Below are positions 11,578 through 38,500 of a stretch of 60,012 nucleotides of DNA, piece after piece. The position numbers were made by a program, and so were the translations under genes. This DNA comes from a virus (lineage: Duplodnaviria > Caudoviricetes): the IMG/VR virus record IMGVR_UViG_3300021956_000015, positions 1 to 60,012 of that record, one strand, 5' to 3'. Position 1 is the stretch's first letter. Each line of letters begins with the position of its first letter. The notes under the pieces were generated by a model that saw nothing but the letters and a program-made list of their open reading frames with translations, did not search any database and was not told where the DNA came from.

Positions 11578-11602
11578 GTGGTTGTAACTCCCGGGTGTAA
11601 CG

Positions 11603-11824: not shown

Positions 11825-11910
11825 GGGGACGACTCCTAGGGTGAGGGACTGAGGCTCGCAGCCGCCCCCGGCCGTGGGCACCGGGGGCGGTTCGCGAGGC
11901 TCAGGCCGCA

Positions 11911-13366: not shown

Positions 13367-13374
13367 GAGTAACC

Positions 13375-13740: not shown

Positions 13741-13961
13741 GATACAGCGTTCGCATCGCACCGCAGTACGAGGTCCGGTTCATCCGGCCACACCAAGTTC
13801 ACTACGTCAGCATCTGCTGGCACGCATCCCGTGGCTACGGCAGCAGCAGGCATGAGCGGCTGATGTACGTGGTCCGACAGTTCGTCCGTCGGTTCCCGGA
13901 GTTTGAGGGCCGTGCCACGGCCGTCTACAAGGACGTCACCTGCCTTCTGGAGAACGCATGA
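13737..13961 (+). CDS. Hypothetical protein
   Basis: GTG start overlapping the upstream stop; GGAGG RBS. Confidence 0.65.
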   Translation: MRYSVRIAPQYEVRFIRPHQVHYVSICWHASRGYGSSRHERLMYVVRQFVRRFPEFEGRATAVYKDVTCLLENA

Positions 13962-15063: not shown

Positions 15064-15112
15064 CCGCGTGGTAGACTGAGTGTGGGCAGCGGCTTCGGCC
15101 GCTCCTAGTGGG

Positions 15113-15157
15113 CCCCTGCCGGGGAAAAACGACATAAGTACCCGGCAGGGGTTTTTT
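15113..15157 (+). terminator. Hairpin with U tract
   Basis: cccctgccggg (15113-23) / cccggcagggg (15141-51), then T6; long loop. Confidence 0.55.
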
Positions 15158-15190
15158 CGTATCCTGTTCGATACCTATACGGAGGTACAC

Positions 15191-15415
15191 ATGGGCGACG
15201 AGATGGACAAAGACACCACCATGCCTTCGTCAGCATGGTGGCTGGTCAAGAAGGCCCTCAAGGAACTTCGCGGCCATGGCTACGCCGCCGTGATCTTCAG
15301 TCCTGAGGAACTGGATGGCTGCCCTGCAAGTGACCTGGAAGGGAGCCTTGTGGAATACGCGTGGGAAGCAATCGATTCGCTTAAGAAGTGCGCCAAGCAG
15401 GAGCCCAGCAAGTGA
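15191..15415 (+). CDS. Hypothetical protein
   Basis: GGAGGT RBS before ATG 15191. Confidence 0.75.
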   Translation: MGDEMDKDTTMPSSAWWLVKKALKELRGHGYAAVIFSPEELDGCPASDLEGSLVEYAWEAIDSLKKCAKQEPSK

Positions 15416-15681
15416 AGACCATCACCATCGGCGACGCCCGTGATCAACTCGCGGAGTTCGTCGGCAACTGCAACGACGACATGGTTGCCCTGCTGCATGC
15501 CGTGGCATTCGCGAAGACCCCGGTGGAGTACATCGACCTGTACGGTGACACCCATGAATCATGGGGGCCGTACATGTTTGCGGCCGGAGAGGACATGCAC
15601 CTGTCCAGACGGATGACGATTGAGGCGAACTGGTTTGCCGAAAAGCAGGAGGCTTACAGTGAAGACCATCGTTCACGTTAA
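15412..15681 (+). CDS. Hypothetical protein
   Basis: GTGA coupling. Confidence 0.65.
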   Translation: MKTITIGDARDQLAEFVGNCNDDMVALLHAVAFAKTPVEYIDLYGDTHESWGPYMFAAGEDMHLSRRMTIEANWFAEKQEAYSEDHRSR

Positions 15682-15880
15682 CCAACACGTGATCAAGCAC
15701 AACCAACGCACCGGGGAACGTGAGCCGGTGCTGACCGTGAAGACCTACAAGGACAACCGCTACGCACACTCCGTGCGGATAGACGGCCCTTGTGTGGTGC
15801 GATACGAGCCGGACTGCCCGCTGAACTGCGGAGCCCGTGTGTGGATCGAAACCGAAAGCCCCGTGGAGGTGGATCGATGA
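15659..15880 (+). CDS. Conserved phage hypothetical protein
   Basis: IVHVNQHVI..PVLTVK..GP..PL-CGARVWIET motif. Confidence 0.85.
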   Translation: MKTIVHVNQHVIKHNQRTGEREPVLTVKTYKDNRYAHSVRIDGPCVVRYEPDCPLNCGARVWIETESPVEVDR

Positions 15881-23231: not shown

Positions 23232-24187
23232 CAGATTCTCCCAATGGTTCCGAGGTCAGGGAGCGTGTTCGGCGGGAATCCCTGGACGTCGGAGTACGCC
23301 CAGATGTCCTCCGACTCCACGCACACGGAGTACCCGGCATCGTCGGTGACGATCATGCCAGGGACCTGGGGCGGATAGTCATCCGGCCAGTTGGGGACTG
23401 GAGTGTTCCACGCCGCCCAGCTGTTGGCGATGAACCAGACGCGGAACGGCCAGAAGGTATGCGTGTCGTCATACCCAACCGTGGCCATGTCATGTCCCCA
23501 CCCTGGCGATGAACGCGGGTGGATGTTCTTGCCGTTTGGCTTGCTGCTCCACGCGGCGTTCTGCCCGGAGTGGATGCCGTACCCGTTGAACAACGCGTCC
23601 ATGGCGTCGTCCATGCTCTTGACCAGGGCGATGGTGCCAACCTTGTTCCGGTTGCACAGCGTCTGGACGTCCGGCGGGACGCCTCCGTTCCTGCCCCAGC
23701 GTGTTCCGATCTGGCCATCGTAGTTCGTCAGGTCCACCACGCCCGGGAAGTTGTCACGCGGCAGGAACCCAACGTCACGCTCAAACCGGCTGGCCCTGGC
23801 TGGGCTCATGCCCTCGCCGCCGTGACCGCGGGCCCCGTATGTGGGCTCCGTCGCGGTTCGCCTGAACCAGGAGAACGGTGCGCCGTGTACCAAAAGCGAT
23901 ACAGCACGCGTGCAGTCCCTGGCGTTGCGGCTGCCATGGCTGACACAGTCGCCTACGGTTTGCCTCTCGGAGAATGCCTTGGGGTCCAGCTTCAGCACGT
24001 AACCCCAGAGCAATGCACGCTTGCCCTTGCCAGACGACGGCGACGAGAAGTAACGCACGGGGTTTGTGGCGAGGAACTCTTCCTTGTCACGCGGAGACGG
24101 CACATAGCCAGCGAATCCTCCGGCCTCGTACGCCCTGACAAGCTCGTCGGAATTGTGGAACAAGTCTTCATCTTGCGGCATTGGCAA
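23231..24187 (-). CDS. Papain-like (C1) cysteine peptidase
   Basis: Q--GDCVSHG, GHDM-TVGYDD, IANSW: Gln/Cys/His/Asn catalytic set. Confidence 0.85.
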   Translation of the reverse strand: MPMPQDEDLFHNSDELVRAYEAGGFAGYVPSPRDKEEFLATNPVRYFSSPSSGKGKRALLWGYVLKLDPKAFSERQTVGDCVSHGSRNARDCTRAVSLLVHGAPFSWFRRTATEPTYGARGHGGEGMSPARASRFERDVGFLPRDNFPGVVDLTNYDGQIGTRWGRNGGVPPDVQTLCNRNKVGTIALVKSMDDAMDALFNGYGIHSGQNAAWSSKPNGKNIHPRSSPGWGHDMATVGYDDTHTFWPFRVWFIANSWAAWNTPVPNWPDDYPPQVPGMIVTDDAGYSVCVESEDIWAYSDVQGFPPNTLPDLGTIGRI

Positions 24188-24671
24188 CCTCCTTCAGAGC
24201 AGCCACCAACGCGGCACGCTTCTCGTCAGTCAGAGCCACATCGTCCTTGCCAATCGCCTTGACCAACAGCTCATCGATGGCGACGTCCAGCCCGGAGTAC
24301 TTCCCGGGCAGGTCGGTTCCCTTGAACGCCAGGTCCAACGCGTCGGCATTGGCTTTCCGCCACTTGCCCACGGTGGCGATGATGTGGTCATCCCGCGACA
24401 CAACGTCCGCCATGGCCGTGTAGTACGCGCGGACGCGTGCCTTGTCCTGCTGGCTGGCGGACTTCAGGATCGTCTGCACCTTGCTCTGCGGCCCGGACGG
24501 CCCGGCCGTGTCCTTGGGCGGAATGAACGCCACCACCAGGACCACCGCGGCGATCACCGCAAACAGGTGCTGCAGCACCACGGCCGGCGTCATCGACTTG
24601 ATCAGCGGCCACGCGTAGCTCAGGGCCACACACGCCGCCACGCACACGGCAACGATCTGATAGTGGGTCAT
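24168..24671 (-). CDS. Membrane protein
   Basis: Two N-terminal hydrophobic helices plus a soluble helical domain. Confidence 0.75.
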   Translation of the reverse strand: MTHYQIVAVCVAACVALSYAWPLIKSMTPAVVLQHLFAVIAAVVLVVAFIPPKDTAGPSGPQSKVQTILKSASQQDKARVRAYYTAMADVVSRDDHIIATVGKWRKANADALDLAFKGTDLPGKYSGLDVAIDELLVKAIGKDDVALTDEKRAALVAALKEVANAAR

Positions 24672-25558
24672 ACGATTCGCTTCTCGCTTTCGTCCAGGAG
24701 GCTTGCGGGGTTGATAAGCCCCCAGCCGTACAGGTGGTCATGCCCTGGGGCGCCTGCATCGACCGAGGTGTTCTTGACCAGGGCGTGCGCCTTCGACCCG
24801 TTGCGAGGGGGAGGCATCTGATTCCAGCCCAACGCCAGCACGCCGGCCACAAACGGCGCCGCCATGCTGGTGCCGGAGAGCGTGGCGTACCCGCCACCCA
24901 GCCAGCAGGATGTGATCTCCTCCCCTGGGGCGACGACGTCGATCTCCCGTCCACGGCTGGAGAACTCGCACACCCCTCCATGCCGGCCGGCGGCACCGAC
25001 GGCGATGGCCTGCTCGTAGGCGGCAGGGTAGGACACGCGCCCCCCGTCATTGCCGGCGGCGCAGACACAGACAACGCCTGACGCGTCCGCCGTCTTGATC
25101 GCATCCGTCAGATCGGCGGTGCGGACAATCGACCCAAGGCTCATAACGATGATGTCGCACTTGGCTTCGATGGCGAACAGGATTGCTCTGGCAACGGACT
25201 CCAGCGACCCGGAGCCGTTGTTGTTCAGCACCTTGAGGCTGACGATCTCGGCCTGCGGGGCGACCCCAGTCATGGGCCCGCGGGCAGCGATGACGCCAGC
25301 CACGTGAGTACCGTGACCGTTGGTGTCCGTAGCAGAGCAGTCCTTGGTGAAGTTCCGGTGCAGCTTGACCACGCCCTGGAGCGCCGGGTGGCTGTCGTCC
25401 ACGCCGGTATCAAGCACACCCACCCGCACGCCGGCCCCCTGGTGACGACTCCAGAGGGCCGGCAATCCGTACGCGGAGATAGACCAGTCCAGGCCTGAGG
25501 AGGGGAGGGCCTGTGCGACTGCCTCAACGCGGTACGGCGGCAGGTGAGCGAGCATCAC
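24668..25558 (-). CDS. Subtilisin-like (S8) serine peptidase
   Basis: VLDTGVD, HGTHVAG, AAGND, SGTSMAAP. Confidence 0.95.
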   Translation of the reverse strand: MMLAHLPPYRVEAVAQALPSSGLDWSISAYGLPALWSRHQGAGVRVGVLDTGVDDSHPALQGVVKLHRNFTKDCSATDTNGHGTHVAGVIAARGPMTGVAPQAEIVSLKVLNNNGSGSLESVARAILFAIEAKCDIIVMSLGSIVRTADLTDAIKTADASGVVCVCAAGNDGGRVSYPAAYEQAIAVGAAGRHGGVCEFSSRGREIDVVAPGEEITSCWLGGGYATLSGTSMAAPFVAGVLALGWNQMPPPRNGSKAHALVKNTSVDAGAPGHDHLYGWGLINPASLLDESEKRIV

Positions 25559-25878
25559 TCATCCCTGGAGATCAGGACGCGGATGAGTGAGGTGACGATG
25601 GGGGCCACCACGTTCAGCAGGATCGGCAGGGCGATGCCCAGGCTCTGGATTTTGGCCAGGTCCTCCTGGGCCTCCTGCTCCGTGATCGCCTGGGCCTGAG
25701 CCTGGAACAGCGGGAACGATTCGATGATCGGCAGCAGGGCCTTGGCGACCTGGTAGACGATCTCCAGCTTCTCGGCCAGGCCGGCGGCGTCGTTCCACTT
25801 GGAGACGATGGCGGAAATCTCCCGCAGCACCCCCACGTTCTGGAGCAGCCACCGGACAACGACGAACTTATCGACCAT
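25555..25878 (-). CDS. Hypothetical amphipathic/membrane protein
   Basis: GAGGAG RBS; hydrophobic C-terminus. Confidence 0.7.
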   Translation of the reverse strand: MVDKFVVVRWLLQNVGVLREISAIVSKWNDAAGLAEKLEIVYQVAKALLPIIESFPLFQAQAQAITEQEAQEDLAKIQSLGIALPILLNVVAPIVTSLIRVLISRDE

Positions 25879-26176
25879 GCTTTCTCCTCTCGCAGGCAAT
25901 GGCCACAATGGCGTGGCCGGCAATGTCCATCAGGGTCTTGTCCCTAGTAATTGTCTCCAGCGGGCCCCTGAGCCGCCGGGATTTCTCGCCGATGCGGGCG
26001 GCCTGGTAACGCCAGGCTTCGATGCCGTCCTGCTCCACGCCCAGGGCGTTTTCCAGGCAGTCCTCGCCGCATCCGTAGTAGGTCCTCTTCCTGGTCAGCA
26101 GCCGGTACAGCTCGTCGCACAGCTCCCGGTACGGGTCACCAGTTGACGTCTCTTGAGGCTGAGACGATTCGTCCAT
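25868..26176 (-). CDS. DUF1599 / nucleotide-modification-associated domain 1 protein
   Basis: LTRKR--YG..D-LEN..RIGEK--RL..DKTLMDIAGHAI. Confidence 0.7.
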   Translation of the reverse strand: MDESSQPQETSTGDPYRELCDELYRLLTRKRTYYGCGEDCLENALGVEQDGIEAWRYQAARIGEKSRRLRGPLETITRDKTLMDIAGHAIVAIACERRKHGR

Positions 26177-26474
26177 ACTCAGCCCAGAAACTGGCTGTGT
26201 GAGGGTCCTCGTCGTCGGTGCAAAGGTACGCAGTTCTGGCATGGGCCCACTCCTCGCAACAGGTGTCAATGAAACTATCTGCGCCGCACGTGTTGGCGAT
26301 GCAGATCACTCCTCTGTTCTCGTCCTCGTCAAAGCAGAAGTAACCCAGCATGTCAGGCATGCTTTTGGGGTCCCTCAGGTAGCACCTTAGCGGGAACGGA
26401 ACTGGGAACTTCCTCTGAGCCCACCTCCGAAACCGCTTTAGCAACAGCCTTCTCCAGTCGCAGGACGAACTCAT
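26136..26474 (-). CDS. Zincin-like metallopeptidase homolog
   Basis: EEWAH (HExxH variant) with downstream H..FW-EYG. Confidence 0.5.
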   Translation of the reverse strand: MSSSCDWRRLLLKRFRRWAQRKFPVPFPLRCYLRDPKSMPDMLGYFCFDEDENRGVICIANTCGADSFIDTCCEEWAHARTAYLCTDDEDPHTASFWAEYGRIVSASRDVNW

Positions 26475-26775
26475 ACAGGCGCTCCGCCGGCAGGGTCACC
26501 AGCCATGGCGACCGGCTCTTCCGGTGGAGCACAACCGGGATGGCATCCCCGGCGTCGTCGGCTGCCTGTTTCATCCAGGCCCGGACCGACTCCCGCTCCA
26601 CAAACTTGACCTCCCAGTGAATGCCCTCAATGTCCACGCGGATATCCGCGGAGTCCTTGCCGCCCTGAAACTGGACGCCACGCCTGGCCGGATTCGCCAG
26701 CCGCAGGGCCGCGGTAATCGCCTTGGCAGCGGCCCGCTCGCCTCGCTTGCCCTTCTCACGCTGGCTGCGGCTCAT
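26353..26775 (-). CDS. Holliday junction resolvase (PD-(D/E)XK, Hjc-like)
   Basis: KGKRGER..D....EVK..W--QA..PVV-HR..W. Confidence 0.8.
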   Translation of the reverse strand: MSRSQREKGKRGERAAAKAITAALRLANPARRGVQFQGGKDSADIRVDIEGIHWEVKFVERESVRAWMKQAADDAGDAIPVVLHRKSRSPWLVTLPAERLYEFVLRLEKAVAKAVSEVGSEEVPSSVPAKVLPEGPQKHA

Positions 26776-27035
26776 TTCAACCTCACAAACAGGGGGCCGT
26801 TGTCACCCACGTAGGCGCCCAGGACGTTGAAGTCCATGTACTCCTCCGCCTCTTCGTCGGTCATGCCGGAGTCAACGAGAATCTGGACGCACTTGGCCAG
26901 GTCATACACGGCGACAACAGGGTGGTGATGGTTCGCGGTGCGTCCGATGACGGCATCCTCAAACCCGTCTGCCAGCAGGGCGTCAGGGTTCTCGTCCTCA
27001 AGGGCCCAGTCATCGTCGTTACGGATGGAGATCAT
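26772..27035 (-). CDS. Conserved phage hypothetical protein
   Basis: ADGFEDAVIG..VYD..GM--EEAEEY-DFNV-GAYVG. Confidence 0.8.
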   Translation of the reverse strand: MISIRNDDDWALEDENPDALLADGFEDAVIGRTANHHHPVVAVYDLAKCVQILVDSGMTDEEAEEYMDFNVLGAYVGDNGPLFVRLK

Positions 27036-27433
27036 GGCTTCCTTGCCCAGTCCAGGTTCGTCTGCCTCTCTGCGAGGTAGAACGCGTGCGGTTCTTCCGG
27101 CTCGTATCCAAGGTGCTTCTTGTGCCGCAGCGAGGCGAGGTACGCCGGATCGTAGTTCTCCGGGTCGCACTGCTGCTTCGCCCACAGCATTGTACGCTTG
27201 TACAGTTCCGGGAAGTTACCAGCTATTCGTCCGTTGTGCAAAACGTCATGGCATCGCGAGCACAGCCGGAGAAAGTTTCTGATGTCATGCTTCCTGCCAG
27301 CGCCCTGCTGAAGGTGATGGACTTCCAAACGTCTGCGGCCATCTGACTCCGGCCACCAGCACACAGCACAACAGCGATGCAGCTGCACCCACTCTTCCAG
27401 CGCCGCCTGCTCCGCCTTCGTCATCCTCGCCAT
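27032..27433 (-). CDS. HNH-like nuclease
   Basis: CAVC..EVHHL..N-LRLCSRCH. Confidence 0.75.
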   Translation of the reverse strand: MARMTKAEQAALEEWVQLHRCCAVCWWPESDGRRRLEVHHLQQGAGRKHDIRNFLRLCSRCHDVLHNGRIAGNFPELYKRTMLWAKQQCDPENYDPAYLASLRHKKHLGYEPEEPHAFYLAERQTNLDWARKP

Positions 27434-27783
27434 CAGCGGTCAAACGGGCATGAACGCGGGTCGCCACCCATCGCCAGCCACTCTCCGCGACTCTTCTGAA
27501 ACCCTTCGCCGATAAACTCGCCGGCATGGGCCACCTTCGCGGGCCTTGCCGCACGGGCCACCGTTGGCGCGCTGCGGGCCCGCTTGAAGTCAAAGGCCCC
27601 TATGGCCGCCTGCGCCGCAATCGCGTCTCTGGAGCCCGCGCAGGAGGCCCTGCGGCGAAGCTCGTCAATGACGCACTGATGCGGGCTGGCCATCGTCTCC
27701 ATGGCCCACTCCAGGTACTTCATCGGTACGTCGCATGCCGGAAGACCCCTGTGCTTGCCGAACGTAAAAGTGCCGCAATCCAT
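27433..27783 (-). CDS. DUF3820-like protein
   Basis: FTFGKHRG----DVP--YLEW; AGGAGG RBS. Confidence 0.75.
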   Translation of the reverse strand: MDCGTFTFGKHRGLPACDVPMKYLEWAMETMASPHQCVIDELRRRASCAGSRDAIAAQAAIGAFDFKRARSAPTVARAARPAKVAHAGEFIGEGFQKSRGEWLAMGGDPRSCPFDR

Positions 27784-28064
27784 GCGATTTTCCTCCTGTT
27801 TGCGCAGCCCGGCTTAAATGAGAGGTAGGGACCACTCACCGACGCCGCAGCGTCACGGGCCACCGGGCCGCTTATCGTTTACCTCATTGCCAGCTCCCGC
27901 CGGGGGTGGAGCTGGACCTTCGTCAGCCGGTGGACTGCCTTGTGCGGACTAGCCGCTCCTGCGATAGGGCAGGCGTTTGTTTATGCTCGCGCTTTTGGTT
28001 ACCAGTCGGCGGGTGCTGCGAGAAAATGAACCGCCTCGGACACTCCTGTATCACGGTGCGTGTG
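27784..28064 (-). ncRNA. Candidate structured non-coding RNA or origin region
   Basis: About 280 bp gap in a tightly coupled operon with nested inverted repeats; strand inferred from flanking genes. Confidence 0.35.
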
Positions 28065-28280
28065 TCACGCAACCGAACTCTCCAACTCACCCACTCTCGC
28101 CCGCAAAGAGGCCACTTGGGCCTTCTGCTCGGCAAGCAGGTCCTCAAGCTCGCGGATGCGAAACTGGGCATCGCCCAGGGCGCCTGCCGCAATCTTCAGG
28201 AGGCTGCGCGGGTCATGGTCGGTTGCGAACGGATCGTTGTAACACTTAAGAAGTGTTACTATCAGAGACTCTGTACTCAT
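28065..28280 (-). CDS. Hypothetical coiled-coil protein
   Basis: ATGA coupling, 71 aa. Confidence 0.65.
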   Translation of the reverse strand: MSTESLIVTLLKCYNDPFATDHDPRSLLKIAAGALGDAQFRIRELEDLLAEQKAQVASLRARVGELESSVA

Positions 28281-28516
28281 GTGAACCTTTCTGCTCTCAG
28301 CTGTTTGATCTCACGCGCTGCGGCTGCCGCAGAGTCGGCGTAGCAGTCGATCACGGTGTACAACCGTTCGATCTCATCGGCTGCCTTGCGAAGCAGCTCT
28401 GACCTGTCAATCGCCCTGGCTTGCGATGCGCTCTCGCGCAGAGCCGACGGCAGCAGCGAGCGATAAGACGGCGACATGTCCAGCGGGTCGCTCATATCAG
28501 ACGCCACCGATAGCAC
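28277..28516 (-). CDS. Hypothetical protein
   Basis: KAADEIERL motif; start uncertain. Confidence 0.6.
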   Translation of the reverse strand: MLSVASDMSDPLDMSPSYRSLLPSALRESASQARAIDRSELLRKAADEIERLYTVIDCYADSAAAAAREIKQLRAERFT

Positions 28517-28607
28517 AGGCCAATGGCGACGCCCAATGTCAACAGCATGCAGGCGAACAGATCGGTCATTCCTGAATCATCCTCGGCGTGTTACGAAGCA
28601 CACTGCT

Positions 28608-28626
28608 GCATAAACACTGGTTCTGT
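28608..28626 (+). mobile_element. attI-like recombination site
   Basis: GCATAAA-CACTG-GTTCTGT, same L-5bp-R geometry as attI1; R box complementary to R'' of the downstream attC. Confidence 0.5.
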
Positions 28627-28628
28627 GG

Positions 28629-28940
28629 CTACTTGTCGTCGCTCGGCGGGGCCGGGAGCGGCATCCAGTGCGTGATCTTCTTGCCTGGATTGTCGTCGGC
28701 GTCTCGCCATTGTCGGTACGAATCCAGATAGGCGAGGTGTAGGCCATTGCTCTGGCTCCACACCAGCACCATCAAGTCATTGACCGGGCACCGCTCCGTC
28801 ACCGAAATCCAATCCGGCTCGGCTGCAATCCGAACGATGTCCGCGATGCCTTTCGCCAGCACTTCGGCTTGATCGTTCGCCACAGAACCAGCGGATGCAA
28901 GAGACGGCTCGGCACCGTCCTGCGTGTTGTCGTCGTTCAT
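28629..28940 (-). CDS. DUF551-family protein inside an integron-like cassette
   Basis: WISVTERCP...VLV...ITHWMPLPAPP. Confidence 0.85.
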   Translation of the reverse strand: MNDDNTQDGAEPSLASAGSVANDQAEVLAKGIADIVRIAAEPDWISVTERCPVNDLMVLVWSQSNGLHLAYLDSYRQWRDADDNPGKKITHWMPLPAPPSDDK

Positions 28941-28971
28941 CGTTCGCCGCTCCTGATCCTGCGTGTTCTCA
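28882..28971 (+). mobile_element. attC-like integron cassette recombination site
   Basis: R'' ACAGAAC-5bp-L'' GATGCAAG ... L' CCTGATC-6bp-R' GTTCTCA, with two extrahelical bases. Confidence 0.75.
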
Positions 28972-29352
28972 CTCTAGCCGATCAAGCAAACCGCGCAACG
29001 CGGCCAACTCCTCGTCGCACTCAGTTGCGGTCGTCGCAGCCATCTCCACGCACCACACAATGGCAGACCGCTCCTCGTCGGTGAGCGTGAACGGCGTTAG
29101 CGTGCAGTATTGCGTCACGGTTCCGGTGACGTGCGGGCAGGCTGGCGAGTTTTCCTGCGACGAAACTTGACGCGGGTCATCAATCTGGACGATCACGCTT
29201 CCGTTGACAACCGACAGCGTGGCGTCCTGATCTGCGAAACGGCGGATGGCTGTGCGCAGCCGCTCAATCTCCTCCGCCGCACGCTCGCACAGCGCGTCCA
29301 CACCCTTGCCGGCGTACGCCCTGTCGCGGAGCTGGTCAACGATGTCGATCAC
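28969..29352 (-). CDS. Hypothetical protein
   Basis: DIVDQLR..AAEEIERLR..TLTDEERSAI; stop codon lies in the attC R' box. Confidence 0.75.
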   Translation of the reverse strand: MIDIVDQLRDRAYAGKGVDALCERAAEEIERLRTAIRRFADQDATLSVVNGSVIVQIDDPRQVSSQENSPACPHVTGTVTQYCTLTPFTLTDEERSAIVWCVEMAATTATECDEELAALRGLLDRLE

Positions 29353-29558
29353 GGATGGGCCTCCAGCATCGCGTCAGGAATCATGCCCCTGACCTCCTCG
29401 GCCAGGAGCACGGCGTCGTCGCTTGCGTCACCGTGCTTGATCAGGCTCCTGCAGCGATGGTCGATGTCCCATAGCGCGCATATGGCCTTCTGCCCTAGCA
29501 GGGCTGCCTGAAACTCGTAGTCATCGTCCGGCAGGTTGAAGTTCAGTGATGCTTTCAT
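29349..29558 (-). CDS. Conserved phage hypothetical protein
   Basis: MKASLNFNLPDD--EF..LWDID--CR--IKHG. Confidence 0.75.
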   Translation of the reverse strand: MKASLNFNLPDDDYEFQAALLGQKAICALWDIDHRCRSLIKHGDASDDAVLLAEEVRGMIPDAMLEAHP

Positions 29559-29640
29559 CGCTCGCTCACCAGTGACACAACCAGGACAATGGAAAACACC
29601 ATGATCCAGAACAGTTCGACCGGCATCGCATCGATGGCGT

Positions 29641-29910
29641 TCATGGCCAACTCGGATACAGCAGGACACCGCACTTGGTATCCGGGTCCAGGACTTCCAC
29701 GGCGGCCGTCCGCGGGAACGTAGTGCTGACCAGGTTGCAGATGTCGTCGTACGGCATCTCCGCCAGGACCTCGGCGTGCTCGTCGGCCCACATCTGCACG
29801 GCGGCGTGATCCCTGGCGAACCCAGGATCATCGTCCCCGCAGTTCATCCACAGCCGCATATCGAACCGCGGGTTGCGGATCATCACCATGTTCTCCCTAA
29901 CGCTGGCCAT
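29641..29910 (-). CDS. Hypothetical protein
   Basis: AGGAGGT RBS; AAVEVLD..GV. Confidence 0.65.
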   Translation of the reverse strand: MASVRENMVMIRNPRFDMRLWMNCGDDDPGFARDHAAVQMWADEHAEVLAEMPYDDICNLVSTTFPRTAAVEVLDPDTKCGVLLYPSWP

Positions 29911-29969
29911 GATGGACCTCCTTGGTGTCCTTGCAGTAGTAGCCTTCCCCAGGGACCTCCCCCCAGGAA

Positions 29970-30632
29970 TCAACCAGAATCTTCCGGAGCCTTGCGACCT
30001 CGGCCTCTAGCCGACGGATCACACCGATCATCTCCGTCGCCTTCTTCTCCGAACGCTCCAGTCGCTCCGTCAACCCACTGCAGGCCTGACGTTGGGAACA
30101 GCATGGCGCAGAGCTGGTCGGCGTGCCTGAGGAAACTGGACGGGGCGACGAGGGTTGGCATTGCGAACCCTCGCATGCCGTCATAGACGACACGCTCTTC
30201 CCAGGATTCGTCGCGGTCGATGGAGCAGAGCCACACCCACTTGCCGGTGACCTGGGACACATAGACCCAGGCGAATGGCTGCTCGCCCTTGCGGAGTCCG
30301 GTGACGTCATCAACGAAGACGGTGTCATAGGGGAAGTCGTCTGGTCCTGTGAACTCAAGGCTTCGGAGCTTGATTTCGATGGCGACTGCCGCCACCGCGT
30401 CCGGGGTTGGACAGAAGTCCTTGCGAGGGTTGTGTTCCGGCAGGACGAGTTTGATTCCGTCGGCGACAGCGCGGCCGTGGATCGTCCGCATCGACTCCAC
30501 CCACGCGTGCTCTGCCTTGTGGGCCTTTGACAGGACGTTCAGGAACTTCTCCTTGGACCATCCGGTCGATGTTGACTTGCCTGACCCGCGCTGCCCTCCT
30601 GGCGATCTCCGCGGGGCTGATCTCTTTGGCAT
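29970..30632 (-). CDS. PD-(D/E)XK nuclease-like protein
   Basis: E...PD......IEIK-R; start uncertain. Confidence 0.55.
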   Translation of the reverse strand: MPKRSAPRRSPGGQRGSGKSTSTGWSKEKFLNVLSKAHKAEHAWVESMRTIHGRAVADGIKLVLPEHNPRKDFCPTPDAVAAVAIEIKLRSLEFTGPDDFPYDTVFVDDVTGLRKGEQPFAWVYVSQVTGKWVWLCSIDRDESWEERVVYDGMRGFAMPTLVAPSSFLRHADQLCAMLFPTSGLQWVDGATGAFGEEGDGDDRCDPSARGRGRKAPEDSG

Positions 30633-30990
30633 CGATGTCCTCCCAGAACTCCGTGCTCAGCGGCTCTGCCCTGCGGATGTCCGATGACCTCCGCTCGCAG
30701 TCCGCCACCTGGTCCACCGTGACCCTGAACGCACTGGCGATGTCAGCGTGGGTACGTTCCGGATAGCCAAGACTCAGGACTATCAGCCGCTCCCGGCTCG
30801 GCAGGCGATGCCGCCGCAGCAGCGACACCATCCTCTTGCCGACGTCCGGGCTCAGCTCCAGGGACTCCCACACTCTCCGCGGAGGCTCCCTGTTGACGAA
30901 CACTCGCCGCCAGATGTCTGGCGCTACGGCGAGCGGAACGCCCAAAGAACCAATCCTTAACTCTTGTCCACAACGAACGCCTTGGCTCAT
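30355..30990 (-). CDS. Hypothetical protein with HTH-like segment
   Basis: GAGGAG RBS; THADIASAFRVTVDQV; 3' end overlaps the next gene. Confidence 0.55.
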   Translation of the reverse strand: MSQGVRCGQELRIGSLGVPLAVAPDIWRRVFVNREPPRRVWESLELSPDVGKRMVSLLRRHRLPSRERLIVLSLGYPERTHADIASAFRVTVDQVADCERRSSDIRRAEPLSTEFWEDIDAKEISPAEIARRAARVRQVNIDRMVQGEVPERPVKGPQGRARVGGVDADDPRPRCRRRNQTRPAGTQPSQGLLSNPGRGGGSRHRNQAPKP

Positions 30991-31052
30991 GCTCTTTCTC
31001 CTCCTCAGAAGCAAACGGGAAAGCCTCGTCAAGCCTGAACACCGATGCGATC

Positions 31053-32594
31053 TCATCCAGGGTGTCCTGCAGAAGCGCGTCGCCTCGCCTTCTCCCGCTG
31101 GAAGAAGTTCTTCTGCCATCCCTTGATGTTGGGTTGCCGCAGGGCCCAGTCGATGTAGCCATCGTCAAGCTCTCCCATGGTTCGACCCGCCATCCGCCCA
31201 CGCAGCGGGCAGCGGTACTCGCTGATGCATTTCTTCTTGCCGGCCAGCTCAACGTCATGGCCATGCAGCCGCCCGGTGGCCGTGCCACGCATGGCCTTCA
31301 GGCCCTCCTCCAGCAGCTTGGCCGTGCGGACGTCTTCCGCCGCCTGGGCCAGAAGGTCGCCAGGGTCTTCGGCGTCGCCCTCCGCGGCACGCCCGCGGGC
31401 ACGGGCGATCACTTCCTTGTCCTCGTCGTCCTTGGCGAACATGTCCACCGCGGTGACGATGGAGTGATCCTCCGTGGAGCCGGTGATATCCACTATCTTG
31501 AACCAGGGCTTGTCGCCGCTGGCGATGGACAGGAGCCTTGCGGCAACGCCCTCCATGCCTGGAGCGGACAACTCCTCCCGGCCGTCCACATCGCCAGGAG
31601 CGGGCCGCGTGGCACGGCCGATGACCTGCTTGAAGAGCACGCGGCTCTTCGTCGGCCGGAACATGAACACCGTCCTCGTCACCGGGGCATCGAAGCCCAT
31701 GGTGGCGATCTGGCAGTTGCACAGCAGGTCAATCTCGCCGGCCCGGTAGCGGTTGATGATCAGGTTCCGCTCGTCATCCGACTGGATGCGGGTGTCGCCA
31801 ACGATGAACTCAGCCCGCATGCCGTATGCGTTCCGGGCCAGTTCTGCCAGGGACATGGCCGTCCGCACGCCAGGCAGGAACGCCAGCGCTGCGCCGACTC
31901 GCTCCTTCTGGACGATCAGGCACATCTGGTGCAGCGGCCTGGAGGCGCCGAGCACCAGGTCCAGGTCGCTCGCGGAGAAGTCGCCACCAGTCACCTTGAC
32001 CTGGCTGGTGTCCAGCCCGTCCACGCGGACGATCTTGGCCCGCGGAGACAGGCACCACCCGTCTTCAATGCCACGCTTCAGGTCGTACTCAAACGCGACC
32101 GTCTCGTAGAAGTCCATCAGCCGCTTGCCGTCCATGCGGAACGGCGTGGCCGTGAAGCCGATGATGATCCCGCCGTGATCCTGAAACTCCCGCAGCATCG
32201 CCAGCACGGCCGGCGAGTACTGTGTGTGGGCCTCGTCAACGATGACGATGCGAGTGCCCAGGAATCGCTTGTATCTCGGCGTCTTCCCAGAGAGCAGCGT
32301 CTGGCGGCTGGCGATGGTCACGCGACCGCGGTAGCAGTTCGCCCACTGGTCGCTCATCTCCAGCTGCGACGTCTCTCCGGTGATCTTGTCGGCGGTGGTG
32401 GCGCACTGCCACACCAGCTCACGCATCGGTGCGATCACCAGCACCTTGCTGTTGCTGCACATCCGTGCCAGCAAGCTGAAAACCACAGTCTTGCCAGCCC
32501 CCGTGAACAGGACGGCCAGCATCGACCTGGCCCCCTGAGCGATGGCCGCGAGAATCCGCTCGCAGCATTCCGTCTGGTAATCCCTTGCCTTCAT
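31053..32594 (-). CDS. Superfamily 2 (DEAH) helicase
   Basis: RDYQ, TGAGKT, DEAH, TATP, GFDAP, QVIGRATR. Confidence 0.95.
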   Translation of the reverse strand: MKARDYQTECCERILAAIAQGARSMLAVLFTGAGKTVVFSLLARMCSNSKVLVIAPMRELVWQCATTADKITGETSQLEMSDQWANCYRGRVTIASRQTLLSGKTPRYKRFLGTRIVIVDEAHTQYSPAVLAMLREFQDHGGIIIGFTATPFRMDGKRLMDFYETVAFEYDLKRGIEDGWCLSPRAKIVRVDGLDTSQVKVTGGDFSASDLDLVLGASRPLHQMCLIVQKERVGAALAFLPGVRTAMSLAELARNAYGMRAEFIVGDTRIQSDDERNLIINRYRAGEIDLLCNCQIATMGFDAPVTRTVFMFRPTKSRVLFKQVIGRATRPAPGDVDGREELSAPGMEGVAARLLSIASGDKPWFKIVDITGSTEDHSIVTAVDMFAKDDEDKEVIARARGRAAEGDAEDPGDLLAQAAEDVRTAKLLEEGLKAMRGTATGRLHGHDVELAGKKKCISEYRCPLRGRMAGRTMGELDDGYIDWALRQPNIKGWQKNFFQREKARRRASAGHPG

Positions 32595-32684
32595 GTCGCC
32601 CTCCTCCTTGGCGGCGGCGCCGGGGGCATCCCGCCCCCAGCGCCGTAATCCGTTCGCCAGCCGGCCTCATGCCAGCACAGTGCC

Positions 32685-33020
32685 CTAGAACGCAGACTCC
32701 TCCTGCCGCTCACGGGCACCACCCAGCAGCGTCACCTCACGGACCTGCAGGCCCGTGTGCGTGCGCTTCTGTCCGTCCTTCTCGTAGCTGCGGCTCTTGA
32801 GCGATCCGGTCACGCAGATCGTCTTGCCGCGGGTCAGGTACTCAGCCACCTGGCCCGGCCTCCAGTAGTCGCAGTCCAGGAACAGGACGTCGCCGTCCTT
32901 GCGTCCATTGACTGCGATGGCGAACGAGGCGACCTCGTTCTCACCGACCATCTTGACCTCGGCATCCCGGGTGAGATTGCCGACAAACGTGCACACATTG
33001 ACTCCGCTGGCCATCGTCAT
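32685..33020 (-). CDS. ssb: Single-stranded DNA-binding protein
   Basis: GNLTRDAE, F-IAVN, YL-RG--I-VTG-L-SR-YE-DGQKR, acidic-aromatic C-terminus. Confidence 0.93.
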   Translation of the reverse strand: MTMASGVNVCTFVGNLTRDAEVKMVGENEVASFAIAVNGRKDGDVLFLDCDYWRPGQVAEYLTRGKTICVTGSLKSRSYEKDGQKRTHTGLQVREVTLLGGARERQEESAF

Positions 33021-33670
33021 GCCTCCTGGAAACGGGTGGAAACCAACTCACTCATCCGGTCGAACACGGCCTGATCGCAGACACGCTCGCTCACGCGGAG
33101 CTTGATGCGGTCCAGCGTCTTCTGGGCGTCGGCCATGGTCTTGGCCTTGTCGATCTCGCCCTTCGCAATGGCTTCGATCTGCAGGCTCTTGTCCGTGCGT
33201 TGCGGAGCCTTGGCCTTGGCGGTCGCCTGCGGCATCACCTTCTGGGCGTCGTCGTCGTCCTCGGCCCACGCACCGACCAGACCCAGCAGCAGGTACTTCT
33301 TGGCGTAGGTGTAGGCAGAGCCCAGGGACTGCATGTCCTTGCGCTCCACGCCCTCCTTGTCCACCCCCAGGTACACCGGGCACAGGCTGGTGACGAACTC
33401 GCCACTGCTGTGCCGCAGCGTGCCCACCGCGATCCACTCGCCGCCGACACGCGTCAGGCACACCTGCGGCAGCGGGAACCCGTGCTGGTTGAGAGGCTCC
33501 CGCAGGGCCTCGCAGATGTCGCTGTACCGCATGTACTTGTAGCGACCGAACGTGTTGTTGCCGCCCTTCTCAACGGCAGGGAACTTGGCCTGAGCCTTCA
33601 CCAGCGCTCCGACCAGAGTCGTCGTCTCCGGGCTCGTCGTCAGTCCCGGCAATCCATGGTCAACAATCAT
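33017..33670 (-). CDS. ERF-family single-strand annealing protein
   Basis: ALVKAQ, N-F--YKY, H-SGE, Q-LGSA-TYAKKY-L, EDDDDA. Confidence 0.9.
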   Translation of the reverse strand: MIVDHGLPGLTTSPETTTLVGALVKAQAKFPAVEKGGNNTFGRYKYMRYSDICEALREPLNQHGFPLPQVCLTRVGGEWIAVGTLRHSSGEFVTSLCPVYLGVDKEGVERKDMQSLGSAYTYAKKYLLLGLVGAWAEDDDDAQKVMPQATAKAKAPQRTDKSLQIEAIAKGEIDKAKTMADAQKTLDRIKLRVSERVCDQAVFDRMSELVSTRFQEA

Positions 33671-34542
33671 CGCCTTCCTCCTGTGAAAAACGCTGGGAAC
33701 TCCAGCTCCGTCTCCTCGTCGTCCTCCGGTGCCCTGTACTCGCTCAGCTGTCGCCGCAGCCGAATCTGGTCCAGGGTCACCTTGATCTGCTCGCGAGCCT
33801 CCTCCACCAGTTCCTCTGGCAGGGTAAGCACACGCACCGCGTGCGGCTTGCTCGTCTGGGCGAAGATGAATCGCAGCTGGTGGTAGTCCCAGCCGCAAGC
33901 CATCGCTGCGTCCACGTACCATGCTGCCTGCCACAGGTAGCCGAACGAGTCGCAGGAGCGCCACAGGTCCTTCCAGTCGGAGGATGTGGTCTTGTAGTCC
34001 CAGAGAAACGCTTCGGTCACACCGTCAGCCAGTGACTTGCGCTTGTGACCGTGAGCGTCCTCATGCCGGAACGCGGCCTGCATGTCCTTGGTCGCTTCCA
34101 GAATCTGGCGAGCACGCTTGTTCTTCAGCGTGTTCTGGACGATGCGGTTGAGCTTCCACCAGTCGGCCGCCGACACTTCCATGCGGCCCTGGTTCTGCTC
34201 CTTCCACTCTGTGTACGCCTTGCCACGGCGAGCCCCGTTCGACAGGACCTCCTCAGGCGGGATCACGTAGCGGTCTTCCAGCCGCACGCCGGCCACCACC
34301 ATTGGGATGGCCCGGTCCACAAGCGTTCCGAAGTCCGTTCCGGCGTTGCCGCTGAACAACTGTTCCCCGTTGTCCAACGCCTCCTGGGCCAGGCCGCCGC
34401 CCTTGAAAACGGAGTGGGCGAACGAGCGTGTCAGGTAGCCGTCGTCCTGCCGGTACGCCCTATCTATGGCGTCCTGGTCAAGGAGTGTCCCGTTTGTGGA
34501 ATCCAGGCAACCTGGGGAATACGATCCAAATGTGACGGTCAT
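33667..34542 (-). CDS. RecE/exonuclease VIII-like PD-(D/E)XK exonuclease (DUF3799-like)
   Basis: FGT-V, K--AD, DYKTT, Y--QAAWY, FIF; next to ERF gene. Confidence 0.8.
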   Translation of the reverse strand: MTVTFGSYSPGCLDSTNGTLLDQDAIDRAYRQDDGYLTRSFAHSVFKGGGLAQEALDNGEQLFSGNAGTDFGTLVDRAIPMVVAGVRLEDRYVIPPEEVLSNGARRGKAYTEWKEQNQGRMEVSAADWWKLNRIVQNTLKNKRARQILEATKDMQAAFRHEDAHGHKRKSLADGVTEAFLWDYKTTSSDWKDLWRSCDSFGYLWQAAWYVDAAMACGWDYHQLRFIFAQTSKPHAVRVLTLPEELVEEAREQIKVTLDQIRLRRQLSEYRAPEDDEETELEFPAFFTGGRR

Positions 34543-34692
34543 CGGACCGCCTCCCGCAGGCAGACGACGGCCTGGCGAGGGAGTCCAAGGACCAGCAGCG
34601 TCAACGCGGCGCCGCAGAGGATGGAGGCAGAGGCGGCCAGAATGCCAAGCCTCAGGGCAGCGCTAGCCAACTGAGCTAGTTGCCCGGGGTGC

Positions 34693-34722
34693 TTGACAGG
34701 GCCGCAAATTGCGCAACTGTCA
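34693..34722. promoter_or_regulatory. Palindromic site overlapping a TTGACA upstream of the tyrosine recombinase
   Basis: TGACAG-GGC-CGCAA-A-TTGCG-CAA-CTGTCA. Confidence 0.5.
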
Positions 34723-34731
34723 GGTATCGCC

Positions 34732-35550
34732 ATGCTACTCTCCGATTACGCTTCCCGCTACGCCAACCGAATAGGGGCTTCGGCCGGCTATTTGGAGCAA
34801 CTTTTGGTCTTCACCAAGAGGCTGCCGTGGCACGTTGAGGAGATCACCACCGAGATGGTGGACGACTACCTGACGGACGCTCTCACCCATTTGGGGGCTC
34901 AGACAGTCGCCAATCACCGCAGACTCCTCACAACCCTCATGCGCGACGCAGCCCGCAACGGACTGAACACGTGTATAGCACGTGGATTCCGCCGGGTCAA
35001 GGTGCCTAGACCCGTCCCCAGAGCGTTGTCCCTGAGCGAGATCAGAGCGGCAGTAGAAGCTGCTCGCAAGACCAAGGGTCATTTCCGTGACCTCCGAAAG
35101 TCGGACTTCCTTGTCGCGTGGTTCCTGACCGCCTACTGCACCGGCTTGCGTGCCGGCGACCTCATGGAGGCGAGGTGGGATCAGATTCGCGGCCGACGAA
35201 TGTATGTGCGTCAATCCAAGACGTCAAGACCACACGTGGTGGTTTTCACCGACGAAGCGTTGGAGGCGTGTAAGGCCCTTCCGCGGAAGCCCCGCATCTT
35301 CGGCGACCATGCTGCGATGAACACCATACAGCAATGGGTGAAGGTATGCATGCTGTCAGCGGGCTTGGATGCCAGCACCAAGTTCCTGCGGCGCTCTGCA
35401 GCTACTTACGCCAAGGTGCAGGGCAAGAACCCCAAGAACGTGCTGGGGCACCTTACCGACGGACTCGCCGAACGCCACTACGTCGATCAGCTTCTGTACG
35501 AGGAAGAGGCCGGCATCAACGGTGAGCCGCTTCCGTCGGTGCTGAGCTAG
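34732..35550 (+). CDS. Tyrosine recombinase/integrase
   Basis: TGLR-GDL, QSKT, KFLRRS (HxxR variant), LGH, HY. Confidence 0.88.
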   Translation: MLLSDYASRYANRIGASAGYLEQLLVFTKRLPWHVEEITTEMVDDYLTDALTHLGAQTVANHRRLLTTLMRDAARNGLNTCIARGFRRVKVPRPVPRALSLSEIRAAVEAARKTKGHFRDLRKSDFLVAWFLTAYCTGLRAGDLMEARWDQIRGRRMYVRQSKTSRPHVVVFTDEALEACKALPRKPRIFGDHAAMNTIQQWVKVCMLSAGLDASTKFLRRSAATYAKVQGKNPKNVLGHLTDGLAERHYVDQLLYEEEAGINGEPLPSVLS

Positions 35551-35553
35551 CGA

Positions 35554-38500
35554 CTAAACCCCCATAATGGAGAGCGGGTCGTCCTGCATCTTCTTCCGCT
35601 CGCGAGCCTTCTTCGCAGCCTCGCTCTGCAGGATGCGATACAGCAGGTACTGACGCTGCTCCTGCGGCGAGAGCTTCACCAGGTCCTCAGGCTTGATGAA
35701 CAGGTTTTCGTAGGAACTCATGCCCTTGGCCTGGTCCAGGAGCTGGTTCAGCGTGGTGCGTGCGGCAAGCCGGACGGTTCGCTCCTGGTCAACGTCCTGC
35801 AGCTTTAGCCCCGTGAGCATGTTGAAGAAGAACTTTGCCGCTCGCTCTTGCGGGCTGATGCGGGAGTCCATCGCCTGGCGGATGGCCCCAACAACTCGCG
35901 AGCCGCCAGGCGCATTGAATGCGACCTGGTCCCACAGCCGCCCGCCCGGGAGGTTCATCTGCTCGGCGAGCGAGTACAGGTCGGACAACTGGCGACCGCT
36001 GTAGAACTGACGGTTGGTGGCCACTTCCAGCGGCGCCTTGATCAGCGGGTTCGTCTGACCCAGCAGGTTCTGACCAGTCTTGGTGACCGCGTCCAGGAAC
36101 TGGCCGGTGAGCGTGTTGCCCACGCCAGGGGTGAGTAGGTTGATCAGCCCCTCATGCGGCAAGTCCAGGTTGGTGAGCACGCGGGTGATGCCTGGCGTGT
36201 TCACTCCCAGCAGCGGGACCGACGAGTCGATTGGGATCGCAGCCGACTGCCTGAGGTACTCAGGAGTGAACCGATCCTCGGATGGCGCAGACGCCCGGTT
36301 GATCGCCCGGATGCTCTGCCCCGTGATCCCGGACGGGTTGTACAGAAGCTCCTGCGCCACCAGCGGGGTGATGCCCTTCTGGTAACTGTAGAAGGGCACT
36401 ATCCGCTTCAGGATGTCGCGCTCAAAGGAGCTGAACGCCTCAGGCCGGTAGTTAATCTGAGTCAGGTCTGCCACCGCCTTGGCTGCCGCAGGAGCATCGC
36501 CCTTACGGACACGCGTGAGGTACGTGCCGATGCGGTTGAACGCGTCGCTCCCCTCGGCGGCCCGGTCGCCAAGCTCAAGCAGCCAGTTGGGATTACCCTC
36601 AGAGGTGCGGAGCGAGAAGATGTTGAGCGGCAAGGGGCGGTTGCGAATGCGCGCGCCCATGCCCTGGAGGATCGCACCAGACCCACCCGGGAACGTCTCG
36701 GCGTACGTGAGGTTGCTGCCCATCCTCCCAAGGTCGTCGGACACCGTGCCTGACGTCAGCCCCTCGCCGCCGGCCTCCGTCAGAAACTTCCGGACGCGGG
36801 CTGCGGAGAGCTGCTCCGCAGACGGCGCGGCACCGACAGGGAACAGGTCGTCCACCTGGTAGCCTGGGGCAGACTCAAGTCGGCGGGCCAGCGGCCCGTA
36901 GTCTCCGCCCCTGGCCCGCACTCCGGCAAGCGCGTCGAACAGATTGAAGCCGCTCTGCGTGGCTCCGGCAAACGCACCGGAGTACATGTCGCGGACATAC
37001 CGGGCAGGCCACAGCAACGCCAGCGTCTTGAAGCTCTGCGTGTACTTGTCGGCTAAAGCAAACAGCCCGGTCGCTTCCCTCGGAGCCCTGGCACGCACCA
37101 GGTTCTCGTTCATCCGGTCCACCATCTCACGCGAGAAGGACCGTCCGCCCAACAGTTCCTCAGGGGTGATGCCCATGCGGTTAGCCAGCGCAAGCACGCC
37201 AGCGTCGCCCTCGGACTTGGCCATGAAACCAAGCTCGCGAAGTGCCTCCATCGGCGTGTAGGACACGCCCCCCGCAACATCGTCAGCAGACTGGAGCAGG
37301 GCGTTGGACGACAGTTCGTCCAGCAGCAGATCGGCCGTGGCCTCGCGCCTGGCGTTGTGGCGGATGTAGTGCGTCAGATCGTTGAGCGCGTTGCCGTACA
37401 GCGGAATGCCTTCGGACGCTCGCTGCAGCGGCGTTCTCCGGAGGCTGTCGGCCAGGTCTTCGTAAGCCTTCTGCTGCCGACGGCTGACTTCGGCCGCAGC
37501 CGCAATCCCTTCCTCGCTGAAGTCATCTGGGTTAAGGTGCTCCCCCATGTACCCAAACGGCGTGCTGCCTTCGCGGATCGGCTTGAACTGGTCGGCGTTC
37601 GCCGCCAGCCACTCGTCAATGAGGTTGCGTGCCTCAGTGTTTGGCGCATTCCGGAGAGCGGCCTGCAGGTCGGCGTCCTGGTACATCTTGTCCAGGACCC
37701 ACCGCGGGAACGCCTCCGTGTACCCACGCCGCGACGAGCGAGTGCCGTCATTAATAGACGCCACGGCGCGGTCACGCAGCGGGATGACCTTGGACCCCTG
37801 GAACCGCGGATCGAACCTGGCGTTGGGGATATCAATCGCCTGACGCGTGAAGTAGTCGATGCCGTTTGGCAGGTCTTTGTGGCGCAGCGGAACGCCAAGG
37901 CGCTCAGCCCTGGCCAACGCATCTGCCTGTGCGTCGGTGGCGAACCGCACGGCACGCTGCACGCCGGGGTCGCGGAACAGGCTGCGCATCTCCGGCGGCA
38001 GCTGCTCCAGCTGGTTTTCCATGACGTTACCAAACGCCCTGGCAAAGTCCTGCGAGCGGACGATGTCCTCGCCAGACCTGCCTGCAAGCGGCGTTCCGGC
38101 GATGGCGTTCGCGTTGTTCTGCAGGTAGGCCGAGACGTCGTCAAAGAGCTGCTGATGCATGTCAGCCAGCCGCCTGTTCGCCTCCCGCGAGGAGAGCTGC
38201 TCGGCCCGCGTGACCTTGCGGCCGAACATCTGCCCAGGCTCGTCCGTGAAGCCCTTCACGCGAGCATCGAACATCGCCTGCGCAGCCCGCAGGGCAGGCC
38301 CCAGCACGGGCGTCGCCCTGGCGTTTGTCTTCAGCCAATCGCTGCCGCGGGCCAGGTAGTCGCCGACTGTGGACCCGTACATGTCGAACGCGTCGTCAAC
38401 CAGGTACGGAACCTTGACGTAGTTGCTGCGAGTGAGCGGTTGCGTCCACTGCTCTGCCGTGCCGCCAACCTGTTCAAACGCCCGCCTCGCTGCCTGGAGC

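Follow-up and report, generated by a model that had tools for sequence, protein, structure and literature searches.

The described systems closest to the locus analysed here are the attC sites and gene cassettes of integrons. The 7-nt boxes of attC sites follow the consensus RYYYAAC/GTTRRRY, as quoted in PMC9892861, and the bottom strands of these sites carry two extrahelical bases on one side, arranged as T-N6-G or T-N6-C (Larouche and Roy 2011, PMC3053210). In one type of integron, the Treponema type, intI is transcribed toward the array, and the intI clade concerned includes a Synechococcus sp. (PMC3607928). Integron components also occur in phages: Qi et al. 2023 (PMC9892861) report them in 21 phages, together with 17 CALINs, a term used for at least two predicted sites, and IntI1 recombined five of the six phage attC sites tested. 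Furthermore, a recombination site can contribute to translation. In attI1, as set out in a review (PMC8876359), the Shine-Dalgarno sequence and ATG of ORF-11/ORF-18 serve cassettes that have no initiation region of their own. A search of titles and abstracts in the literature yielded no description of an attC site that supplies the start of a gene, of reversed cassettes of that kind, or of the phage family treated below, and those parts of PMC9892861 that are drawn on here give no account either of attC sites supplying a gene start or of this element family.

The DNA analysed here, referred to as the window, is a virus record of 60,012 nt that is rated 100% complete and has ~63% G+C. It encodes virion genes (terminase, portal, major head protein and virion proteins), and its leftward early operon encodes an exonuclease VIII-like protein, an Erf-like annealing protein, SSB and a helicase. 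A megablast search of positions 24000-36000 against GenBank phages gave no match. The record is classed as 'linear', and its two ends (1-140 and 59873-60012) form a 140-nt direct repeat with 99% identity, a terminal overlap that suggests a circularly closed assembly or terminal redundancy.

On the minus strand of the window, an attC-like element of ~90 nt overlaps the start of a gene for a DUF551 protein (Table 1). The original prediction had placed the ribosome-binding site and ATG of this gene inside a recombination site and had ascribed the N-terminus of the protein to that site. Both statements agree with the positions found, as AGGAG and ATG lie within the element, 9 nt apart, and residues 1-19 are encoded by it. 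It was also correct that the upstream gene stops within a box of the site. The distance of the DUF551 stop codon from the GTT, by contrast, had been given as 8 nt, and six bases separate the two. In the canonical layout an ORF lies on the top strand and ends before or in its attC; here, instead, it starts within the site and is encoded by the strand that bears the extrahelical bases. Over 28882-28971, this gene-sense strand corresponds to an attC bottom strand. Judged from sequence comparison, the element is probably a member of a homogeneous family of integron attC sites and, with the DUF551 body, makes up one cassette (~28621-28965) mounted opposite to the canonical direction.

Table 1. Coordinates of the attC-like element, its parts and neighbouring features in the window.
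Feature	Position	Strand	Basis and remarks
attC-like element, ~90 nt	28882..28971	-	Covariance model R1, 81.8 bits, E 1.6e-19, full length 1-90; nhmmer E 1.1e-21
5' box TGAGAAC	28965..28971	-	Upstream gene stops at its TGA; sequence
AAC, putative crossover triplet	28967-28965	-	Breakpoint profiles; run X3 contig matching only from 28965 upward
5' stem arm GGAT-CAGGAG-CGGC	28946..28959	-	Holds Shine-Dalgarno AGGAG, 28954-28950
37-nt loop	28909..28945	-	Contains ATG 28940-28938 and codons 2-11; homologues start at the same ATG
3' arm GCCG-T-CTCTTG-C-ATCC	28893..28908	-	Extrahelical T 28904 and C 28897, pattern T-N6-C; encodes (E)PSLAS
3' box GTTCTGT	28882..28888	-	GTT 28888-28886; encodes part of G18, S19, V20
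DUF551 gene, 103 aa	28629..28940	-	Pfam PF04448, E 4.7e-11, residues 44-99; residues 1-19 encoded by the element
Orphan box GCCACAGAAC at cassette end	28620..28629	-	Complementary to body start GTTCTGTGGC; no element after it
Putative cassette, 345 nt (element and DUF551 body)	28621..28965	-	Linkage and breakpoint analyses
Upstream gene, 127 aa	28969..29352	-	C-terminus of a common cassette family (..TLTDxER..LRGLLxRxx)
Phage tyrosine integrase, 285 aa	34693..35550	+	PF00589 E 1.1e-9; phrog_1 E 2.3e-27; best PDB match lambda Int

At the far end of the DUF551 body, the stop codon TAG (28631-28629) runs into the orphan box (28629-28620). Read on the plus strand, positions 28620-29 are GTTCTGTGGC and abut the stop (CTA 28629-31), base 28629 being common to both. 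The two ends of the body in the window, CTGTGGC and GCCACAG, are complementary. Straight after the orphan box there is a hydrophobic ORF of 27 codons (28489-28570, minus strand), which by eye has an ATGA overlap with the start of the next gene. On the other side of the element, the 127-aa upstream gene looks like a hybrid of two cassette genes from which an intervening element may have been lost. In a related locus (L138, 2486-3073), the N-part and the C-part are encoded by two neighbouring genes that flank an element (2723-2811), and the second of these genes starts just after that element, not inside it. A joint from 29170 to 29255 (run X3, depth 3.4) falls within the upstream gene of the window.

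Nothing in the window by itself sets the site apart from chance, and the evidence that it is real comes from its relatives. The DNA folds of 28870-28985 gave z values of 0.06 and 0.17 against shuffles on the two strands, a measure that tells little in DNA of 63% GC, and the 13-nt inverted repeat has an E of about 0.1. A search for the peptide motif in all six frames of the window returned a single occurrence, nhmmer and the covariance model each detected one copy of the element and no second, and scans of the window with Rfam and for tRNA (ARAGORN) gave no matches. A further covariance-model match at 25191-25220 (13.4 bits, E 0.52) was rejected as chance; a long open reading frame passes through it.

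Relatives of the element are numerous. Homologues of the DUF551 protein number 111 at E <= 1e-3, and the EPSxASAGSV... N-terminus is kept among them even where the DUF551 core diverges (alignment A1), while tblastn with the protein retrieved only distant homologues from enterobacterial phages, matching from residue 22 or 44 on. Related IMG/VR contigs have this same leader at the start of successive small genes that are unrelated to each other. The likeness lies in the DNA, over ~77-79 nt with 90-96% identity and several copies per locus (L007 was omitted from the first DNA alignment). More than 119 further viral stretches were gathered by a pattern scan, and an nhmmer profile built from 22 copies was searched against 129 viral stretches, some from one contig, and the window. 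This search found 303 copies in 100 of the 130 sequences. At least two copies with no nearby integrase, the feature of a CALIN, were present in 78 of the 130 and at least five in 20, with up to 10 in a single array; the window itself, with one site only, is not a CALIN, which takes at least two attC sites and no nearby intI. The copies were co-oriented, all on one strand, in each of the 25 copy-richest loci inspected, at a spacing of about one small gene. Short IMG/VR contigs classed as viral could in fact be pieces of bacterial integrons. Arrays are found in records rated at least 98% complete, with ten copies in L099, five in L040, four in L065 and three each in L077 and L084. These loci resemble the CALINs and single attC sites of phages, as described in PMC9892861, in that attC clusters occur without IntI and DNA methyltransferases are among the cargo. 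What sets them apart from the CALINs of that study is that all 303 copies, in arrays with as many as 10, belong to a single sequence family.

The cargo was assessed by a Pfam search of 117 representative element-headed proteins. DUF551 was found in 15 and most had no family, and the methyltransferases comprised three DNA_methylase (C-5), three N6_N4_Mtase, one MT-A70, one Dam and one N6_Mtase; HNH was present in three to four. If the cassette reading developed below is right, the presence of several DNA methyltransferases among the cargo suggests anti-restriction roles.

Read along the gene-sense strand, the element begins with an AAC box and a spacer of 5-6 nt; the 5' arm (4 + 6 + 4 nt) and the 3' arm of the stem then enclose a loop of ~37 nt, and a spacer of 3-4 nt leads to the GTT box. 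The length from AAC to GTT is 82 nt in 162 of 259 copies, with a range of 77-84. The triplets are at the expected place in nearly all copies (AAC in 279 of 301, GTT in 289 of 301) and stand in inverted orientation. The AAC box is usually [GTG/CAC/CTG]AGAAC and the GTT box usually begins GGTTCT. The 7-nt consensus RYYYAAC/GTTRRRY is not matched by most copies, the window's included, the usual form being GTTCT[CG][AT]; the commonest boxes are GTGAGAAC, CACAGAAC and CTGAGAAC, with GGTTCTCA and GGTTCTGT. Only minor variants (GTTAGCC, GTTATGC) and two bacterial sites described below (CTCTAAC/GTTAGAG) fit that consensus.

The hairpin between the boxes was examined in 44 copies no more than 80% identical to each other, with 500 shuffles for comparison. 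In the stem, 88.2% of cells were paired, as against 68.9% in the shuffles, and two-sided changes were found in 172 cells, as against 51.7; none of the 500 shuffles reached either observed value. When the partners were slid, only 29-43% were paired. Independently, RNAalifold returned the same stem, with 13 pairs and two 1-nt bulges and with compensatory changes in 11 of the 13 pairs. Among 208 unique copies, the inner extrahelical base is a T in 189 and the outer a C in 200, the two standing six nucleotides apart in the 3' arm, and 2754 of 2912 core pairs are Watson-Crick. The mismatches favour one strand, with 51 G.T against 17 A.C on the gene-sense strand. By these alignments, AAC and GTT boxes enclose a covarying stem of 14 bp and a loop of ~37 nt, which gives the element the geometry of an attC bottom strand, and the expectation that the DNA under the peptide folds as an attC thus holds in the relatives as a conserved covarying hairpin. 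Among 45 non-redundant elements, two (L011:8554-8643 and L018:677-768) lack a homologous 5' half and for that reason were not included in alignment A2. In both, the 5' half is replaced by unrelated sequence, and in the former the upstream ORF appears to run directly into the 3' arm. Covariance model R1 was built from 44 non-redundant copies.

A link to bacterial integrons comes from a search with a 24-nt pattern against one genome per species, in which the sole match was a 15.8-kb contig (L144) titled Cyanobium sp. FGCU52. This contig carries chromosomal genes and an integron integrase, IntI, at 10050-10982 (TIGR02249, 457 bits, cut-off 265). Six R1 matches lie on one strand at 13070-15724, ~2 kb beyond the 3' end of intI. 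With intI on the plus strand and the array on its 3' side, this bacterial relative, though not the phages, resembles the Treponema type as outlined in PMC3607928. One gene of the contig starts inside a site with the same leader (MNDDDTQGASEPSPASAGSQPVAWAV...), and a cassette of the contig is 92% identical over 359 nt to the viral stretch L018. Two further sites follow mazEF cassettes; their boxes read CTCTAAC/GTTAGAG and their stem has the same 4-6-6 form. The extrahelical bases of these two sites are on the strand antisense to mazF, so the mazEF layout is canonical and the phage-type genes are reversed relative to mazEF within one integron. This comparison, together with the T-N6-C bases on the gene-sense strand of the phage copies, bears out the original claim that the DUF551 gene runs antisense to its attC.

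Several other features of these bacteria were recorded. The two mazE-mazF cassettes (14129-14962 and 14890-15724) are in tandem and apparently identical, with a 103-nt attC each. At 13782-13830 of the same contig there is a loop-less site of 49 nt (46.5 bits), whose gene has its own Shine-Dalgarno sequence and ATG just outside the site. Of 101 genomes from that bacterial family, 21 contain matches to the site model, and these 21 all measure 2.5-3.6 Mb. In the same bacterial assembly (G037), a second full integron integrase (446 bits) is encoded at 231-1169 of contig C66 (L145), a 6.9-kb contig with no match to the site model, and partial IntI matches are present on C13 and C80, the former of which also has one site match (67.7 bits). 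The phage helicase, tried as a host marker, had only matches of ~30% identity in the bacterial family, and so it provides no evidence on the host.

The phage family thus shares with the attC sites and cassettes of chromosomal integrons its AAC/GTT ends, an imperfect hairpin, T-N6-C on one strand and a length of ~90 nt, as well as co-oriented arrays spaced by one gene, complementary cassette ends, sites that are highly similar within the family and, on one bacterial contig, co-occurrence with IntI. Unlike chromosomal integrons, it has genes that are read on the bottom strand and start in the site, its boxes are mostly GTTCT[CG][AT], and its arrays lie in early operons without an integrase.

If the element and the gene that it heads were mobilized as a cassette, the body ends should carry a trace of this, since a circular cassette intermediate predicts that the bases after GTT are complementary to those before the next AAC. 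In 119 de-duplicated bodies, the mean complementary run was 4.34, whereas shuffled pairing of the body ends gave 1.78 +/- 0.11, with a maximum of 2.21 in 2000, and the two flanks of one element gave a run of only 1.88. At least 13 covarying types of body end were found. Linkage was assessed by comparing elements that share a neighbouring body. For pairs with the same upstream and different downstream bodies (n = 59), the identity of the element was at background, whereas for pairs with the same downstream and different upstream bodies (n = 116) it was 0.75-0.82. In 30 pairs with the same upstream body, identity fell from 87-100% to background exactly across the AAC. As read from these profiles, the element travels with the gene that it heads, not with the preceding gene, and the breakpoint is at the AAC box.

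The window shows the same boundaries in comparison with other freshwater metagenomes, for which assembled contigs, which drop rare variants, were used; these contain no excision product or circular cassette. Some contigs match the window only to 28624, among them a contig of run X3 that follows it to this point and then diverges, others only from 28965 on, and others only over 28884-28960. Taken with the body ends and the linkage profiles, these matches place the window unit at 28621-28965.

Two observations count against a strict cassette reading. Copies that share a body have loops of only 65-73% identity, compared with 94% for the body itself, and in one array (L002) identical elements head different bodies. 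The imperfect linkage implies that another exchange, such as gene conversion or homologous recombination, also acts. This raises the question as to whether the element is simply a conserved linker for homologous recombination, comparable to lambdoid boundary sequences or the promoter-stem-loops of T4 and used by the phage Erf and exonuclease. The phage does encode an Erf-like annealing protein, an exonuclease VIII-like protein and SSB, and gene conversion would account both for the identical elements on different bodies and for loops that are less conserved than the bodies. Yet exchange within an 82-nt repeat should scatter the breakpoints, while background identity is already reached 3 nt past the AAC in the 30 pairs. 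Nor does such a linker predict covarying complementary body ends, the T-N6-C pattern or co-occurrence with IntI, and we give this explanation only a small chance of being correct.

The site also has a coding role. Among 267 elements with both boxes, 217 contain an in-frame ATG, of which 197 encode proteins of at least 55 aa that fall into 116 k-mer clusters. It had been anticipated that an EPSxASAGS-type peptide would mark such cassettes and that the domains downstream of it would differ, and these figures bear out both points. About 50 of the 267 elements have no in-frame ATG, which counts against a reversed cassette with a built-in gene start. Translation of the 3' arm gives E-P-S-x-A-S and that of the GTT box G-S, and the peptide shifts in step with the 5' arm, appearing as EPS.AS, ERS.AS, EMS.AS or EMSAPM. 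Because the peptide changes whenever the 5' arm changes, it is the nucleic acid that is constrained and not the peptide. Conservation at the nucleotide level is seen in the GGT and TCT codons and in the AAC box, which is non-coding. On this comparison, the leader peptide is a by-product of the stem.

A hairpin that is translated might act only in the mRNA, as a translational operator or processing site (a stem sequestering the Shine-Dalgarno sequence, or an RNase III-like or protein-binding site), and be spread by duplication and ordinary recombination. The folding strand is indeed the sense strand, as the excess of G.U (51) over A.C (17) shows, the subfamily of the window has its Shine-Dalgarno sequence in the stem and its ATG in the loop, the 217 copies with an ATG head in-frame ORFs, and an influence of attC hairpins on cassette translation is known, according to the review cited for attI1 (PMC8876359). 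However, this explanation leaves unaccounted for the conserved AAC and GTT triplets, the complementary ends of bodies of 155-1614 nt and the location of the breakpoints at AAC. The same model also detects sites next to IntI and, on the non-coding side, after mazEF cassettes, and the copies without an ATG have no place in this explanation. An exclusively mRNA-level function is accordingly very improbable, whereas a role of the hairpin in the mRNA may well be true in addition to recombination, not instead of it.

Recombination of the site by an integron integrase requires a source for that enzyme. In 37 viral records, the window included, no integron integrase (TIGR02249) was found, nor in the six of them that are at least 90% complete (L005 was left out of this search). 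The window likewise does not contain a complete integron, with intI, an adjacent attI and an array on one replicon. Its sole tyrosine recombinase, considered as a candidate integron integrase, was ruled out, as it has no TIGR02249 match and resembles ordinary phage integrases. The site could instead be recombined by another hairpin-recognizing enzyme, such as a phage tyrosine recombinase of ~300 aa or a single-strand transposase. The lack of IntI in the 37 viral records would fit such an enzyme, and one small tyrosine recombinase is present in four of five array-bearing records and in the window. These phage integrases, however, lie 12-50 kb from the arrays, and the one in the window is of the ordinary type described above. 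The geometry is that of an IntI substrate, and IntI is present on the one bacterial contig with sites, which makes a different enzyme most unlikely.

The internal proteins of T4 share a capsid-targeting sequence, which offers an analogue for a functional leader. That the N-terminal peptide is itself the functional unit, as a targeting or processing signal common to accessory proteins, is scarcely credible: a common N-terminus does occur on many unrelated small proteins, with M1, S13, S16 and G18 nearly invariant in the 117 representatives, but the peptide is not conserved independently of the nucleic-acid structure, as a targeting signal would be, and instead covaries with the opposite stem arm, GGT, TCT and the non-coding AAC box are conserved as nucleotides, about 50 of the 267 elements are untranslated in that frame, and the same structure is untranslated after mazF.

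The reading of 28882-28971 as an attC site with a reversed cassette suggests a mechanism. The loop and 3' arm would double as translation-initiation region and as the first 19 codons. The site would supply the initiation region and first codons, and therefore a body without a start of its own would be expressed at any landing point where the cassette is aligned with transcription, here the leftward early operon. A host-encoded integron integrase would insert such cassettes into phage genomes, excise them and carry them from one phage genome to another. At the mRNA level, the stem may sequester AGGAG, in which case initiation would depend on ribosomes that terminate at the TGA of the 5' box. 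The arrangement resembles ORF-11/ORF-18, as presented in PMC8876359, in that the recombination site carries a Shine-Dalgarno sequence and ATG for a gene. It differs in that those lie in attI, as a separate short ORF that acts by translational coupling and for the first cassette only, whereas here an attC is fused in frame to its own gene. The inverted-cassette interpretation in the original prediction is largely supported, as each part of it that could be tested was observed in related sequences. That the benefit of this layout lies in joining the leftward operon with built-in translation signals is a point that we, too, infer.

A broader proposal can be advanced tentatively, with a chance that we put slightly below even: one pool of 'phage-ready' cassettes would be common to temperate phages from fresh water, whose hosts may be picocyanobacteria, and to the chromosomal integrons of those hosts. 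The attC of such cassettes would have been co-opted as a universal translation-initiation module. Host IntI would plug start-less accessory genes (DUF551, orphan DNA methyltransferases, HNH and many unknowns) into the phage early operon, and the host integron would serve as a borrowed gene-shuffling machine. If this is true, mosaicism in the accessory early genes of phages would have a site-specific mechanism with predictable junctions, and phage genomes and bacterial integrons would be joined as one cassette pool. One recombination site would then be under dual constraint, as the DNA that folds into a substrate would also serve for initiation and coding. The element, or its translation E-P-S-x-A-S-x-G-S, would also provide a tag with which to harvest hundreds of mobile phage genes of unknown function.

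Three further features of the window lie outside the cassette region or are of a different kind. A protein of 486 aa (56902-58362), outside the cassette region, matches a DNA methyltransferase PHROG (E 1.8e-14). The stretch at 9890-12150 has 72% G+C and contains several repeat families (D3, D5, D10-D12 and D20), some of them spaced 223 nt and 524 nt. Finally, a 53-nt unit occurs four times at 47546-48117, with spacings of 117, 285 and 117, within a virion structural protein of 869 aa (45574-48183) that matches PHROGs of repeated structural domains.
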